A model generated the notes under the pieces. That model saw only the letters and a list, made by a program, of their open reading frames with translations, was not told where the DNA came from and did no database searches. DNA of 64,000 bases from Pseudomonadota bacterium (GTDB taxonomy: Bacteria > Myxococcota_A > Polyangia > JAAYKL01): positions 126,343 through 190,342 of the forward strand of contig JALNZK010000002.1 of NCBI GenBank assembly GCA_023229365.1, in the 5' to 3' direction. This document shows, piece after piece, positions 3,105-55,242 of this stretch (position 1 is its first letter; every line of letters begins with the position of its first letter). The position numbers and the translations under genes were made by a program.

Positions 3105-3464
3105 ATGAAAACTTTTCAACAATTTATGGAAATGGCTAGAGTGGCAGCCATAAAACCAGCTATCAAGTCGCAAATGAATCGAGAGATCAATGCAATTGCC
3201 AAAGGGTTTCATGATAAAATACCCCTCTCGCCAATCTTTGCCGTTCTGGAAAAACTGGGCTACCAAGCCGTGCAAGAAGATGGCACCCCGTGGTCGGGAA
3301 TGCTGGTCGGCGGGGGAGAGTGCGGCAGCGAACAATCTAGAAGCCAAGTGGCCAACATTGACATTGTTCGCAAAGAAGATAATACCCCAATGAACAATGC
3401 CCTCTACCTATCCTGGTGTAAAATGCCATCAGGCCGATATGAAGTCGTTGCATACATTAGTTAA
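3105..3464 (+). CDS. small internal-protein-like polypeptide with a CTS-like N-terminus (MKTFQQFMEMARVAA)
   Basis: N-terminus closely resembles the T4 IPIII capsid-targeting sequence MKTYQEFIAE as I recall it; GAGGT ribosome-binding site upstream. Confidence 0.6.
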   Translation: MKTFQQFMEMARVAAIKPAIKSQMNREINAIAKGFHDKIPLSPIFAVLEKLGYQAVQEDGTPWSGMLVGGGECGSEQSRSQVANIDIVRKEDNTPMNNALYLSWCKMPSGRYEVVAYIS

Positions 3465-3465
3465 T

Positions 3466-3501
3466 AAAAAAAGCCCCGCTCATCCGAAAATGAGCGGGGC
3501 T
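3466..3501. terminator. bidirectional rho-independent terminator between convergent genes
   Basis: GCCCCGCTCAT-loop-ATGAGCGGGGC hairpin; T-run on the minus strand. Confidence 0.6.
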
Positions 3502-3524
3502 TGCCTTCGGCACCGACCCAGACG

Positions 3525-4868
3525 CTATTTCTTTTTAGTAGGCTGAACCATATTCGGGTCCAACGACAAATCCTTAGCGGTCTTCGCTGTCAACAGGGCG
3601 ATCAAATCAGAAGCTCCATTTTGTGCTCCTGCGGTGCCAGTTGCTCCATTTCCCATAACAATCGACGGCACCCAACTTCCCTCATGCTTCGCAATAGCTT
3701 CGGCATAAGCCTTGTTGATTTCAACCCAAGCGGCCAATTTCTTTTCCAAAGCACCGTCAGCCTCCATCACCAATGTGCGACGTTTGGCTTCACCTTCACC
3801 CAAGGCAATTTGCTCTTTCTTTGTCATTTCGGCTGCTTGTGCTGCCAACTCGGCCACCTTCAATTCCTGGGCAGCCTTGGTTTCGGCCACGGACTTTTCC
3901 TGCTTCGCCTTAGTTTCAGCCACAGTCTTGTCCTGGTCAGCCTTGGCAACTTCCTTAGCGGCAACTGTCTTTTGCTCCCACTCAGCCTTGGCAGCATTAG
4001 CTTCACCTTGCTTCTTGGTTGTAATACATTCCTGCTCGGCTTGTTTCGCAGTAGCCATAGCGATCTGAACTTGCATAGTCAGTTTTTGCTGCTGGCTAAT
4101 TTGTTCTTCAACCTGCGGATCGTATGCAACTTCATTGATACTAAGATTAAAAACCTTAATCCCAAATTGCTTCAAAGGACTTTCTTCTGCTCTCTTTGGC
4201 TTTCCGTCCTTATCAGTAACTAACTCAACTTTGGCAATTGTCTTAATAGCACCTGTAAGAGGGTCAGTTGCCTGCTCTTGAGTAGTCTTGGTAAGATAAA
4301 CACCATTCTGGATTTGATCCTCAATCAAATTAAGCAATTCATTCCGGCGTTCGGCATAAGATTCCTTTGAACTCATGGTCGGGCCAGTCATATAAATTGA
4401 CTTCTCGATGATTGTGCGAATCAATTGCTGTTCGACCGCCAAATGGCTTCCATATTGCTGATGAATACGTGTTAGATGCTCTTCATCCAATGGCATCTCC
4501 CAACTAATACCGCCTGACAGTTGGGCATGCCCACCGTCATTGAATCGGATTTTGATAGAGTTGTCTGCGGCAGCAGCCCCTTGGTCATTCTTGGCAGAGA
4601 ACCAAAACTGTGACCGTCTATCATAGCAAGTTACTTTGCCGAATCCTTGATACTTCACGCCCTGTGATGTGTACCAATCTAGTTGGCCTTTGACCGGGCT
4701 CTGAATTACCATAAGTTGTTTGGCGTCCAAGTTCTCAAAAAATCCAAACAAACTAAAACACACAACAACACACAAAATCACAGAAACCAACAACAACAAC
4801 ACTTTTCTCGGGTCCATTGAGTTCTCTCCTTGATACGAGGGTTCAGAATAAACACTACTACGCTTCAT
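3525..4868 (-). CDS. SPFH/flotillin-like membrane protein (YqiK/FloT-like)
   Basis: N-terminal TM helix, SPFH-like core, C-terminal EA/KA-rich coiled-coil repeats (VAETKAKQE...). Confidence 0.6.
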   Translation of the reverse strand: MKRSSVYSEPSYQGENSMDPRKVLLLLVSVILCVVVCFSLFGFFENLDAKQLMVIQSPVKGQLDWYTSQGVKYQGFGKVTCYDRRSQFWFSAKNDQGAAAADNSIKIRFNDGGHAQLSGGISWEMPLDEEHLTRIHQQYGSHLAVEQQLIRTIIEKSIYMTGPTMSSKESYAERRNELLNLIEDQIQNGVYLTKTTQEQATDPLTGAIKTIAKVELVTDKDGKPKRAEESPLKQFGIKVFNLSINEVAYDPQVEEQISQQQKLTMQVQIAMATAKQAEQECITTKKQGEANAAKAEWEQKTVAAKEVAKADQDKTVAETKAKQEKSVAETKAAQELKVAELAAQAAEMTKKEQIALGEGEAKRRTLVMEADGALEKKLAAWVEINKAYAEAIAKHEGSWVPSIVMGNGATGTAGAQNGASDLIALLTAKTAKDLSLDPNMVQPTKKK

Positions 4869-5104
4869 TTCATTTGCCTTTCTTCAATTTCTATTTCTGC
4901 TTGCAATGCTTTCAATTGTCTTTTCTTTTTTGCCAAATCCACCTCCTCTTTGGCTGATGCTAATGCGGCATCAACTGTTTTGTTTTTCCGCTTAAAAATA
5001 GGAAAAGTTGGTCGGCCCAAAAGAATAGGAGCGATTACTTGGGTTATGGTAAACCCAACTATCAACACCACAATAATAAACTGGACAGCTTCTAAAAAGA
5101 CCAT
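4865..5104 (-). CDS. NfeD/YqiJ-like small membrane protein, partner of the flotillin
   Basis: 79 aa with TM helix then a charged coiled tail; overlaps the flotillin start; mirrors yqiJ-yqiK / nfeD-floT operons. Confidence 0.45.
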   Translation of the reverse strand: MVFLEAVQFIIVVLIVGFTITQVIAPILLGRPTFPIFKRKNKTVDAALASAKEEVDLAKKKRQLKALQAEIEIEERQMK

Positions 5105-5162
5105 ATATTACCCTCCATTGATTCCAAAGATTATAACCAATTTAGGATTTCTTTGCAAGATA

Positions 5163-53457: not shown

Positions 53458-53502
53458 TTGTAATCTCTACATACTATACTATAATGTGATGCAGAGGTCA
53501 AT

Positions 53503-53838
53503 ATGTTAAAAAAGAAAAAATTAAAACCAATTTGTAAAAATTGTAGTTTATTTGATCGAAACAACAGCATATGCAGAGTGGTTATTTTATCCGAAGGTGA
53601 ACGCATCAACATTCCTGTTGACCCCGATGATAAGTGTTTTTTCAACAATAAGTTTACTGCTCTTGAAGAAAAAGCAGGGAAAATTGTTGAAGAACAATTT
53701 AAGCCAGAAATTGAACAAGTCCGATGGTGGGTAGAAGACCCAGAAACTGGACAACAAACTAAGGGAAACGGCGTTGTAAAAATGCAATATCCAAAAAACT
53801 TTTTCTCTCCCGAGGATAAAGATGTTCGAAAAAATTAA
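53503..53838 (+). CDS. zinc-ribbon protein
   Basis: CKNCSLF...C. Confidence 0.4.
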   Translation: MLKKKKLKPICKNCSLFDRNNSICRVVILSEGERINIPVDPDDKCFFNNKFTALEEKAGKIVEEQFKPEIEQVRWWVEDPETGQQTKGNGVVKMQYPKNFFSPEDKDVRKN

Positions 53839-54460
53839 ATACAAATACTGGGAAATAGTGCCGTATGATTGGCGACCTTGGCAAATGTGGTATCGCTTCA
53901 AGTCCTTTATTTGGACTCGCCCCACAGTTATCAAGCCTCGCTATTTACCTTATACTTGGTGCGACAGAATGGAAATGCTGCCCCATATGATGTTTGAGAT
54001 ATTATCTCAATTCATTGAACAAGAGTGCTCGCCTGGGCATGTGGATTGGGAAGCTTCCGATCACAAGATTCGTGTGGTAAAAGACGATTCTATTGATCCC
54101 GGTAGCGGCCTTCCATTGGACCCCGGCAAAATGGTCAATGTTCGTGACGAAATGCAGGAACTTTATGATTGGTGGCATAATGTTTATATGAAAGAATATA
54201 AAGAGGTAGAAGAAATTCTTTGGGCAGAAGCCAGAAAACACGAGCCAATTGACCGATGGGAAGAAGACGATGATAAAAAAATGGCTGGACTCTACGGCGA
54301 AACCCTTTATAAATGGGAGCAAAATTTTAAAACCACCGAAGATGAAGAAATTTATCACGATTGTTTAATGGCACTCAACAAATTAGAAGCCAATCAACAC
54401 AAAGCATTATTAGCAAGGATGCACAGAATAGTCAATCTGACTGGTTATTTGTGGACGTAA
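53822..54460 (+). CDS. hypothetical protein
   Basis: 212 aa. Confidence 0.45.
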   Translation: MFEKIKYKYWEIVPYDWRPWQMWYRFKSFIWTRPTVIKPRYLPYTWCDRMEMLPHMMFEILSQFIEQECSPGHVDWEASDHKIRVVKDDSIDPGSGLPLDPGKMVNVRDEMQELYDWWHNVYMKEYKEVEEILWAEARKHEPIDRWEEDDDKKMAGLYGETLYKWEQNFKTTEDEEIYHDCLMALNKLEANQHKALLARMHRIVNLTGYLWT

Positions 54461-54475
54461 TATCTATATACTTCT

Positions 54476-54829
54476 ATGAGTTTTAGACAATTTGTAGAAG
54501 ATGCTGCGGCTTGGGATGCTTTTCAAGACGTTTTCTTTGTTGGAGAATACGAAGGGCAAGCAAGTGATTTCTATTGCTGGCTTCGCCAACGCTGGAGTGC
54601 CAATCAATCCCCTCAAGATTATGATTACAAAGGATTGGAAAGATTGTTTGCTGATTGGAAAAAAAGCACAGTTCGTGGTGCATGGTGTGCAAAAATGGAT
54701 CGAAGTCGAGATCGCAAACGAAGAAAAGACTTCGGCCCAGGCAAATATTGGGCACCTACATCAGCAGGTGTCTTCCTAAATAAAAACTTTGTAAAAGGAT
54801 GGAGAGGTATCAATCCAGCAAACCCATGA
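54476..54829 (+). CDS. CTS-like protein (MSFRQFVEDA)
   Basis: 117 aa. Confidence 0.45.
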   Translation: MSFRQFVEDAAAWDAFQDVFFVGEYEGQASDFYCWLRQRWSANQSPQDYDYKGLERLFADWKKSTVRGAWCAKMDRSRDRKRRKDFGPGKYWAPTSAGVFLNKNFVKGWRGINPANP

Positions 54830-55242
54830 AATTCAAACAATGGCTTGAATCCATATACTATCACGGCACCACACCCGAAAACGCCGAATCTATCCTAAAA
54901 AATGGCATCGACCCAGATCGCTATAAAAGCGGGATGTTCAGAGGATTCTACCTTACACCAAACCCAACTTACTTCAATGGCTTTAGCGGGCCAAAGAAAA
55001 CAATTTTGGCCATAGAAATTGATGACTCGCAAATACTCGATGTAGAAAGCGTCAAGGATGAGGATTTGCTGCCAATTGATCCTCACTTCAAAATGATGAG
55101 CCCAATGTATAAAAATACTATGATTATGAAGTTGGCTCTTGAAAAAGGATATTCTGGCGTCAAAAACGGAAAAGAAGTTGTTCTTTTTACTGACAGAGCA
55201 ATCCGCTCTATTCGACCCATAAATTCCAGTCATTCAAAGTAG
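54826..55242 (+). CDS. Tpt1/ART-fold C-lobe-like protein with a CTS-like N-terminus (MKFKQWLESI)
   Basis: IYYHGTT...GIDP...GFYLTP; ATGA overlap with the upstream stop. Confidence 0.5.
   Translation: MKFKQWLESIYYHGTTPENAESILKNGIDPDRYKSGMFRGFYLTPNPTYFNGFSGPKKTILAIEIDDSQILDVESVKDEDLLPIDPHFKMMSPMYKNTMIMKLALEKGYSGVKNGKEVVLFTDRAIRSIRPINSSHSK

Follow-up and report, generated by a model that had tools for sequence, protein, structure and literature searches.

Why should about one in six genes on a stretch of phage DNA, with products as different as a CCA-adding enzyme and short basic polypeptides, begin with the same peptide of some nine residues? The question is raised by a stretch of 64,000 nucleotides (positions 126,343–190,342 of contig JALNZK010000002.1, assembly GCA_023229365.1; hereafter, the window), part of a 340,072-bp contig that was deposited as a "Proteobacteria" metagenome-assembled genome and that, by sequence comparison, is from the genome of a huge-phage clade. 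The closest record is the 595-kb genome of an uncultured phage (LR756511.1), with whose 335–378 kb region the window is syntenic; 32 of 107 window genes have homologs there, at 25%–68% identity. No near-identical record was found among phage genomes, a megablast search with 10 kb of the window came back empty, and tblastn with the proteins encoded at 54826 and 3105 (genes are named here by the window position of their start codon) gave no match in cultured phages. An earlier note on this DNA had listed 18 open reading frames (ORFs) with a common N-terminus and had likened it to the capsid-targeting sequence (CTS) of the internal proteins (IPs) of bacteriophage T4. We conclude that the common N-terminus is probably just that, i.e., a diverged and greatly expanded capsid-targeting leader of the T4 type.

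Seventeen ORFs in the window open with M-x(1-4)-[FY]-x-x-[WF]-[LIMVC]-[E/K/L], and two further ORFs (8703 and 57579, already called weak in the earlier note) match less well, which gives a leader-bearing share of ~1 in 6 of the window's ~105 genes. All 18 N-termini of that note are present (8452 on the minus strand), together with one absent from it, a 62-residue protein encoded at 44318..44506 (minus strand) that begins MLSINFKNWIEKE and has a poly-Lys C-terminus. A strict pattern, M.{1,3}F..[WF][LIMV]E, is matched 15 times in the six-frame translation of the window, whereas 50 Markov-2 shuffles gave on average 0.54 matches and never more than 3. The core alone, F..[WF][LIMV]E, occurs 18 times over the six frames, and 15 of these occurrences lie 1–3 residues past a Met, which makes the motif specific to N-termini; with a position-specific scoring matrix (PSSM) built from the instances, all 17 matches at ≥14 bits stand beside a Met. 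The first aromatic residue is at position 3 in nine ORFs, at position 4 in four, at position 5 in three, and at position 6 in one. By inspection, the N-termini do not look like Sec or Tat signal peptides, there being no hydrophobic h-region of 7–15 residues such as these would have after a basic n-region, and polar or charged residues directly behind the motif.

Chance, start codons picked to fit the pattern, or descent of all these genes from one duplicated family could in principle produce such a picture, and the motif Met is indeed not the first possible start codon in about six ORFs (39795, 45775, 45795, 47884, 54826, 38033, and 8452). Each of these starts is backed by a promoter hexamer (see below), by a 4-nt ATGA overlap with the upstream stop codon, or by an LR756511 ortholog (which begins MTLGFRQFVE), and most of the motif ORFs have an in-frame stop codon within 14 codons upstream, so that the motif Met must be at or near the true start. 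The motif recurs, moreover, at ORF starts in LR756511 (~25 ORFs) and in 17 contigs from IMG/VR, and the motif proteins have no residual similarity: when they are compared by BLASTP without their first 13 residues, no pair is found at E ≤ 0.01. With far more matches than the shuffles allow, this explanation is effectively refuted, and we give it next to no weight. The downstream parts, which the earlier note called unrelated, are so at the level of BLASTP; it should be noted that at least three of them have a YHGT.../YL[ST] signature resembling that of ADP-ribosyltransferases (ARTs) in common.

To see at which level the motif is conserved, we tallied codons over 30 instances, 17 from the window and 13 from one relative. 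The first aromatic residue (position 0) is Phe in 29 and Tyr in 1, the residue at +3 is Trp in 22 and Phe in 8, and the Glu directly behind the aliphatic residue is kept in 28. At the nucleotide level, Phe is encoded by TTT (18) and TTC (11) and Glu by GAA (23) and GAG (5), Leu by TTA, CTG, TTG, CTT, and CTA, and Arg by AGA, AGG, CGA, and CGC; at the first base of the [LIMV] codon, the information content is just 0.02 bits. Exchanging Trp for Phe takes two base changes, and both this swap and those among Leu, Ile, Met, and Val keep the chemistry and not the bases. Repeats at the DNA level at gene starts in the window extend over ~25 nt at most, with 79%–87% identity. Because synonymous codons vary, selection acts on the peptide. 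Conservation at synonymous positions of the kind expected of a downstream-box type RNA element was not found in the 30 instances, and the possibility that the earlier note had named as fatal to its own proposal, namely that the motif is a translational context conserved as nucleotides, therefore fails.

The motif genes have a second property in common. In the window, 9 of the 19 motif genes and 3 of the 87 remaining genes (p = 5e-6) have a TAnATA hexamer that ends 3–10 nt before the ATG. LR756511 shows the same bias, with the hexamer at 19/26 leader genes and 62/755 other ORFs (p = 9e-15). Frequent forms of it are (A)TAAATA and TATATA, and TATATA itself lies within 25 nt upstream of 8/19 motif genes and 1/87 others in the window (p = 2e-6). 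Thirteen of the 19 motif genes, compared with 8/87 others, are on the plus strand (p = 2e-7). The motif genes are thus a separate regulatory class. The hexamer-to-ATG spacing implies that their mRNAs are leaderless or nearly so. Examples are the genes at 39795 (75 aa, MKTFAQWLEH; 39795..40022, plus strand; TATATA at 39784–39789) and 54476 (117 aa, MSFRQFVEDA; 54476..54829, plus strand; TATATA at 54465–54470), both with 5 nt between hexamer and ATG; for the gene at 3105 (119 aa, beginning MKTFQQFMEMARV; 3105..3464, plus strand), TATATA is at 3080–3085. The weak match at 57579 (118 aa, MRTFFESIQ; 57579..57935, plus strand) has the same promoter arrangement, with TATATA at 57564–57569, 9 nt before the ATG. 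Two minus-strand genes carry TAGATA instead: that at 8452 (273 aa, MEFKNWLEM; 7631..8452) at 8458–8463, 5 nt before the ATG, and that at 27034 (80 aa, MKTYKQWCEQ, small, basic, and A/K-rich; 26792..27034) at 27039–27044, 4 nt before the ATG. Upstream of both (8453–8470 and 27035–27050) is a common stretch, TCTACA(A)TAGATA-N4/5-ATG. A scan for two-hexamer sigma-70 promoters found 61 sites in the window against 51.6 in shuffles, i.e., no enrichment, and no site in which a TATATA hexamer served as the −10 element; together with a terminator scan, it was of no help in placing operon boundaries.

The most compact arrangement is seen in two divergent spacers of 19 nt each. In the first (45776..45794), a palindromic TATATA (45784–45789) is 8 nt away from the minus-strand ATG at 45775 and 5 nt away from the plus-strand ATG at 45795; in the second (49976..49994), TATATATA at 49980–49987 serves the ATGs at 49975 (minus) and 49995 (plus). 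With one palindromic TATATA(TA) per spacer, the same hexamer would need to act as −10 element in both directions, giving leaderless transcripts on both strands. The genes on either side of the first spacer encode a Gly/Pro-rich protein of 180 residues (MTLSFRQFMEQ; 45233..45775, minus strand), the one whose LR756511 ortholog begins MTLGFRQFVE, and a protein of 145 residues (MNTTFEHFVEE; 45795..46232) that heads a plus-strand operon. TATATA is retained at the equivalent junction in LR756511.

If the mRNAs have no leader, the first nine or so codons, or the nascent peptide that they encode, might be a translation requirement that enhances initiation or early elongation. The presence of the hexamer 3–10 nt ahead of the ATG in roughly half of the motif genes of the window and three-quarters of those of LR756511 is what one would expect, as is the somewhat lower frequency of Shine-Dalgarno-like sequences at motif genes (7/19 compared with 45/87, a difference that is not significant). 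A similar hint comes from one IMG/VR contig (3300027747_004557, L031), in which each of the leader genes stands behind a repeated cassette of 60–100 nt, GCCAACGAGAAATAYGCG...GCTAGATAGGNGC-ATG, that extends into the first codons. Against this stand the synonymous and third positions, which vary freely, the unconstrained first base of the aliphatic codon, exchanges at the key positions that preserve side-chain chemistry and not sequence, and the shortness of the start repeats in the window. Furthermore, operon-internal motif genes without a hexamer (26795, 40024, 46229, 47884, and 54826), some of them with a Shine-Dalgarno-like sequence, keep the motif, which shows that the leader does not simply accompany the promoter. 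We therefore regard a translational role as very improbable. In L031, five or six leader genes are arranged in tandem at 4447–8493, 3–6 kb downstream of the gene for a Gp23-type major capsid protein (MCP), and the cassette looks like a promoter-plus-leader module by which cargo genes could be shuffled.

What, then, do the leaders precede? The best-defined payload is encoded at 48758..49975 (minus strand; 405 aa, MVSFMQFLESKEV), which the earlier note had recognized as a CCA nucleotidyltransferase; the assignment to the CCA-adding/poly(A) polymerase family is borne out by a Pfam PolyA_pol match from residue 39 onward (1e-35) and by phrog_2244 (1e-49). Here, the leader is an N-terminal extension of ~13 residues, and a viral homolog (locus L017) starts 13 residues later. 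The same note spoke of Tpt1-like proteins, and the 268-residue product of 46229..47035 (plus strand; MNFRLFLERE) does pass as Tpt1/KptA-like, a member of the ART superfamily, by a borderline margin (Pfam PTS_2-RNA, 26.8 bits with a cutoff of 26). The HD hydrolase proposed for 8452 could not be confirmed, there being no match in Pfam, PHROGs, or the PDB, and PDB sequence searches with the 8452, 47884, and 46229 proteins gave nothing significant. The 57579 protein belongs to DUF192 (Pfam, 1.7e-17). For the 214-residue protein encoded at 49995..50639 (plus strand; MNFRNWIEHK), an AlphaFold2 model (pLDDT 72.6, residues 3–9 helical) was compared with the PDB by Foldseek; the top matches are nearly all of the ART fold (pertussis S1, Tpt1, and DarT), at weak scores (E ∼4e-3, TM score ∼0.3), which is suggestive of an ART fold. 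Its orthologs retain MNFR[NP]W[IL]E. More distant ART-like homologs on high-GC huge-phage contigs (P0006 and P0007) start MRLIDLTET and MKLVELFES; these starts may represent a second leader type, nearer to that of T4 Alt than to the IP type. An ART-like signature is also present in the 138-residue protein encoded at 54826..55242 (plus strand; MKFKQWLESIYYHGT; 4-nt overlap with the upstream stop codon), and by eye its YHGT signature is common to the 46229 protein.

Several of the remaining members are small and basic or Lys-tailed, like the T4 internal proteins, among them the 102-residue protein with a pI of 10.1 that is encoded at 26487..26795 (minus strand; MSFRSWLEAD), next to the one at 27034. 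The weak match at 8703 (408 aa, MKYPKFNKFLE; 8703..9929, plus strand) is rich in Lys and Pro and has a homolog in LR756511; its C-terminus consists of (GDEDEL)n acidic repeats, not unlike the acidic stretches in gp67 and gp68 of the T4 prohead core. Directly behind it comes a variant with Lys in place of Glu (152 aa, MNTSFNEWLK; 9930..10388, plus strand), and a further variant is encoded at 38033..38692 (plus strand; 219 aa, MQFKQWLLHE; another possible start is at 38024). The set is completed by proteins of 249 residues (MNFKLWIEND; 40024..40773, plus strand) and 192 residues (MTFRIWLEQN; 47884..48462, plus strand). Leader-bearing proteins of LR756511 include one with a NADAR domain, whose Pfam match begins at residue 19, a C39-like peptidase with a match beginning at residue 23, and a 2H phosphoesterase; an HExxH protein is also among the payloads of relatives. 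Only ∼4 of the 19 motif genes in the window have homologs in LR756511, and at the conserved gp4 locus (see below) the window holds two motif genes more than LR756511 does, as expected of accessory cargo with a fast turnover, such as has been described for the internal proteins of T-even phages (PMC3012670). The ART, NADAR, and 2H classes have independently been predicted to be packaged into the heads of myoviruses (PMC9503650).

Whether such proteins could be loaded in the manner of T4 depends on the head that the clade builds. Searches of LR756511 with T4 head proteins (phmmer) identified homologs of gp23 (3e-35), gp21 (1e-22), and gp20 (1e-33), and the head genes form one module in the T4 order protease-scaffold-capsid. 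With the portal gene, this module spans 523.5–533.6 kb of LR756511, and its scaffold protein (317 residues) is encoded at 525018–525971. In two further relatives (L043 and L044), precomputed Pfam annotation places Portal_T4, Peptidase_S77, and Gp23 side by side, and with L025 there are four relatives in which T4-type prohead genes are seen. The MCP belongs to the Pfam family Gp23; it has >7,800 close relatives, and the contigs that encode them reach 673 kb. The portal proteins of the clade have 850–860 residues and contain an intein (PF14890 plus Portal_T4; L043 2061–4628, L044 549–3107, and LR756511 531014–533593), and LR756511 has a second ORF weakly like T4 gp21 (242240–243154, minus strand; E = 2e-6), distant from the head module. 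The relatives' MCPs have several conserved hydrophobic-x-E and LLE sites, of which alignment to T4 fixes none as a cleavage site. The window itself contains, at 47195..47887 (plus strand), a motif-free homolog of the T4 head-completion protein gp4 (phrog_218 "head closure," 5e-24; BLASTP with T4 gp4, 2e-14; phmmer, 1e-10), whose stop codon is overlapped by 4 nt by the ATG of the motif gene at 47884. This gp4-like protein has an additional N-terminal part of ~110 residues, absent from T4 gp4, that is zinc-finger-like (CxxC...H, with a weak zf-Di19 match) and is conserved in LR756511.

In several relatives, leader genes lie near these head genes. Among the ~25 leader-bearing ORFs spread over the 595 kb of LR756511, the NADAR gene (start MLTWTEFLEAR) adjoins the MCP gene. 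A degenerate DNA pattern for MKTFxQWLE, used to search IMG/VR, matched 17 contigs; almost every match lies where an ORF begins, and in many cases there are more leader ORFs nearby. By BLAST, most of the 17 loci share genes with LR756511, several of them one gene, and L028, L030, and L033 just the gp4-like one. In four loci (three of them distinct), leader ORFs lie 0.6–6 kb from the Gp23 gene, up to five or six in tandem, and for genomes of several hundred kilobases this proximity is unlikely to arise by chance (rough binomial p ∼0.001–0.01). L043 has a leader ORF (MKTFSQFVGLKE) between its portal gene and its protease gene, as well as a NIF phosphatase with the start MQFGLWLEQ. No recurrent leader was found on L041, a high-GC 544-kb scaffold with a distant homolog.

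How far does the likeness to the T4 CTS go? T4 IPII and IPIII start MKTYQEFIAE, and IPI starts MKTFKEFTS. T4 propeptides, which measure 10–19 residues, take their proteins to the core of the prohead. The main determinants of targeting in IPIII are residues 4 and 7, and those of processing are residues 8 and 10; the cut by gp21 falls behind the Glu of L/I-x-E (PMC9026906). The motif has the same pair of aromatic residues at i and i+3 (Tyr4 and Phe7 in T4), followed by an aliphatic residue and then Glu, and four window ORFs start MKT[FY] or MVSF, with aromatics at positions 4 and 7. The 3105 protein even matches T4 IPII over its first 37 residues in a pairwise BLASTP comparison (E = 7e-6), with no match at the level of a database search. 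In both systems a short leader is carried by otherwise unrelated proteins, many of them small and basic, and in both the gene set turns over between related phages; a prohead of the Gp23/gp20/gp21/gp22 type is common to T4 and the relatives of the window phage. Other features differ. The motif reads WLE where T4 has IAE, with the Glu directly behind the aliphatic residue, and Trp dominates the second aromatic position; there are 17–19 members in 64 kb here and ~25 in the 595-kb relative, compared with three in T4; some payloads are enzymes of considerable size; and the genes stand behind a promoter placed for leaderless mRNA. Moreover, packaging is established for T4 and is predicted here.

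On the CTS reading, the motif would form a short amphipathic helix whose hydrophobic face consists of the aromatic residue at 0, Trp or Phe at +3, and the aliphatic residue at +4. This helix would dock the newly made protein on the scaffolding core of a T4-type prohead, the docked protein would be enclosed when the Gp23-type shell closes, and the gp21-family (Peptidase_S77) prohead protease would then probably remove the leader at the invariant Glu; the freed protein would stay in the head and be ejected with the DNA into the next host. We infer docking, cleavage, packaging, and injection by analogy with T4. The genes themselves would be interchangeable cassettes, each with a −35-less TAnATA promoter 3–10 nt before the ATG, a leader of ~9 residues, and an unrelated payload. 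The 17–19 genes in the 64-kb window would supply a CCA-adding enzyme, several ART/Tpt1-like proteins, a DUF192 protein, and small basic or low-complexity proteins, to which the NADAR, 2H phosphoesterase, C39-like cysteine peptidase, and HExxH proteins of relatives would be added.

The same peptide could instead be a docking or recognition peptide for some other process (a chaperone, a phage-made compartment, the tail, a propeptide that restrains a toxic enzyme, or a degradation tag), with the likeness to the T4 CTS convergent and the genes simply one co-regulated class. Selection on the peptide, the predicted amphipathic helix, and the single promoter class agree with this, too, since none of them names a binding partner, and the Glu directly behind the aliphatic residue, which departs from the T4 cleavage rule, and the weak score of the T4 CTS on the motif profile (see below) speak for it. 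On the other hand, the clade carries the whole T4 prohead machinery, the conserved residues are those that determine targeting in T4, motif genes cluster by the MCP, portal, and gp4-like genes, and the small, basic, Lys-tailed members resemble the T4 internal proteins. Given this evidence, we consider docking to another partner unlikely, albeit less so than a translational role, and prefer the capsid-targeting leader.

It should be noted that a number of observations count against a capsid-targeting leader. The L/I-x-E site of T4 does not occur in the motif (P3 is Trp or Phe in the 30 instances, with no preference at P1′), and with its Glu immediately behind the aliphatic residue, the motif is not one that the T4 rule would predict to be cut there; that the specificity of the protease has shifted relative to T4, as the earlier note suggested, is only a guess. 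The first aromatic residue varies in its offset from the Met (positions 3–6), in contrast to T4. Scored on the motif PSSM, the T4 CTS (IPII/IPIII) reaches just 5.2 bits, within the top 4.4% of LR756511 ORF N-termini, and homology of a nine-residue peptide cannot be proven. Overall, the earlier note's proposal of a CTS-like leader that loads diverse cargo is partly supported. All the indirect tests made here speak for it, namely the clade's T4-type head with its S77 protease, aromatic residues that correspond to T4 residues 4 and 7, the add-on nature of the leader, the clustering with capsid genes, and the failure of the nucleotide-level explanation; this low score is among the points that limit it. 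A gp21-family protease and a scaffold are present in relatives. The head module of the window's own genome would lie outside the 64 kb: among the best 120 matches in the Gp23 family, none is on a 340,072-bp contig, and the module is deduced from relatives at 25%–68% identity. No cultured relative with virion proteomics is close; XacN1 is by its MCP among the nearest cultured jumbo phages (~32%–33% identity), and its virion has been analyzed by mass spectrometry (PMC5852040). The motif is absent from the chitinase and lipase packed in the XacN1 virion, and no recurrent leader was seen in the head-region ORFs that we read (ORF260–ORF296), a comparison that is uninformative and mildly negative. 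Finally, we know of no precedent for a packaged CCA-adding enzyme.

As to the timing of expression, the T4 late promoter, TATAAATA, is a −10 type without a −35 element and resembles the (A)TAAATA form of the hexamer, and the TATATA-headed operon holds the gp4-like gene together with three motif genes, gene 4 being a late gene in T4. A phmmer search with T4 gp55 gave nothing convincing. LR756511 does encode, at 464242–464820 (plus strand), a 192-residue protein that has Sigma70 region 2 only (31 bits) and, in pairwise comparison, bears a weak likeness to the XacN1 "late transcription sigma factor" (E = 0.002), making it a candidate for a gp55-like sigma factor acting at TAnATA promoters. As phmmer found no gp55 homolog and there is just this weak region-2-only candidate, late timing is not established. 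The MCP genes of the relatives have no TAnATA hexamer of their own, the capsid genes lying inside operons, so that the promoter cannot be tied to the capsid gene.

Comparison with other known systems brings out what would be peculiar to this one. T4 Alt (N-terminus MELITELFDE), an ART that T4 packages in its own head and injects, resembles the several ART/Tpt1-like motif proteins in its activity class, and differs in that it is a 682-residue, R-S-E-type enzyme processed at both termini, whereas the window ARTs are small and have the YHGT (H-Y-E-like) signature. phiKZ-like giants (201phi2-1 and SPN3US) likewise have a large capsid with many internal proteins that, once loaded, are cut behind a Glu by a divergent protease of the gp21 type; their propeptides, in contrast, are long, with no common N-terminal leader and another cleavage motif, and they have no detectable capsid protein of the Gp23 family (PF07068) of the window-clade type. 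MuF-fused or "polyvalent" virion effectors draw on the same classes (ART, NADAR, 2H, and peptidases) and are predicted to be delivered with the DNA (PMC5512222, PMC9503650), but there the handle is a fused structural domain or a giant polypeptide of many domains, whereas in the present case every effector has its own small gene and a tag of ~9 residues. Encapsulin cargo-loading peptides, finally, are also short linear peptides that bring unrelated cargo into an HK97-fold shell, yet they are usually C-terminal, bind the shell protein, and are not cleaved, and no injection follows.

The principle of leader-loaded internal proteins is already known from T-even phages. In the literature that we searched, no paper links a CTS to huge phages, and we did not find a description of such a scale, of enzyme payloads, of a spread over a huge-phage clade, or of coupling to a leaderless-type promoter. 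Taken to its full extent, the proposal would be that the ~9-residue leader is the general capsid-loading tag of a widespread clade of huge T4-related phages, that dozens of enzymes (a CCA-adding enzyme, Tpt1/ART-like proteins, 2H phosphoesterase, NADAR, and peptidases) are injected as an RNA-repair and counter-defence kit, and that the tagged genes are expressed as leaderless mRNAs from −10-only promoters, in some cases from one bidirectional palindromic hexamer. By way of the tag, the "injectome" of uncultured huge phages could then be read from sequence, and translation would have to turn leaderless while virions are assembled. We hold this wider version tentatively and would put it slightly short of an even chance.

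Huge phages are known almost solely from metagenomes, with no role assigned to most of their genes. If the leader marks capsid cargo, as its counterpart does in T4, it would point to proteins at work within seconds of infection, ahead of all phage gene expression, and this early-acting set would include enzymes of RNA repair and ADP-ribose handling, beyond small DNA-binding proteins. The T4 CTS would grow from a curiosity of three proteins into a general, evolvable loading system; the contents of huge capsids besides DNA would become a testable list; and natural tag variants could serve engineered capsids that deliver proteins. The coupling of the leader to a leaderless-type promoter is a separate testable point on gene expression in these phages.

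Elsewhere in the window, an AT-rich intergenic inverted repeat with arms of 44 nt (36461–36560) contains three TATATA hexamers. It is followed by an ORF on the plus strand (36665–37474) with 84-nt tandem repeats (37280–37444) encoding NPNFGK..ETREKIS, which look like NUMOD3 repeats of a homing endonuclease. Among the window's best conserved genes is that for a 691-residue PrkA-like serine kinase/AAA protein (21873–23948, minus strand), which is 68% identical to its LR756511 counterpart and ~30% identical to the versions found in Thermus phages.

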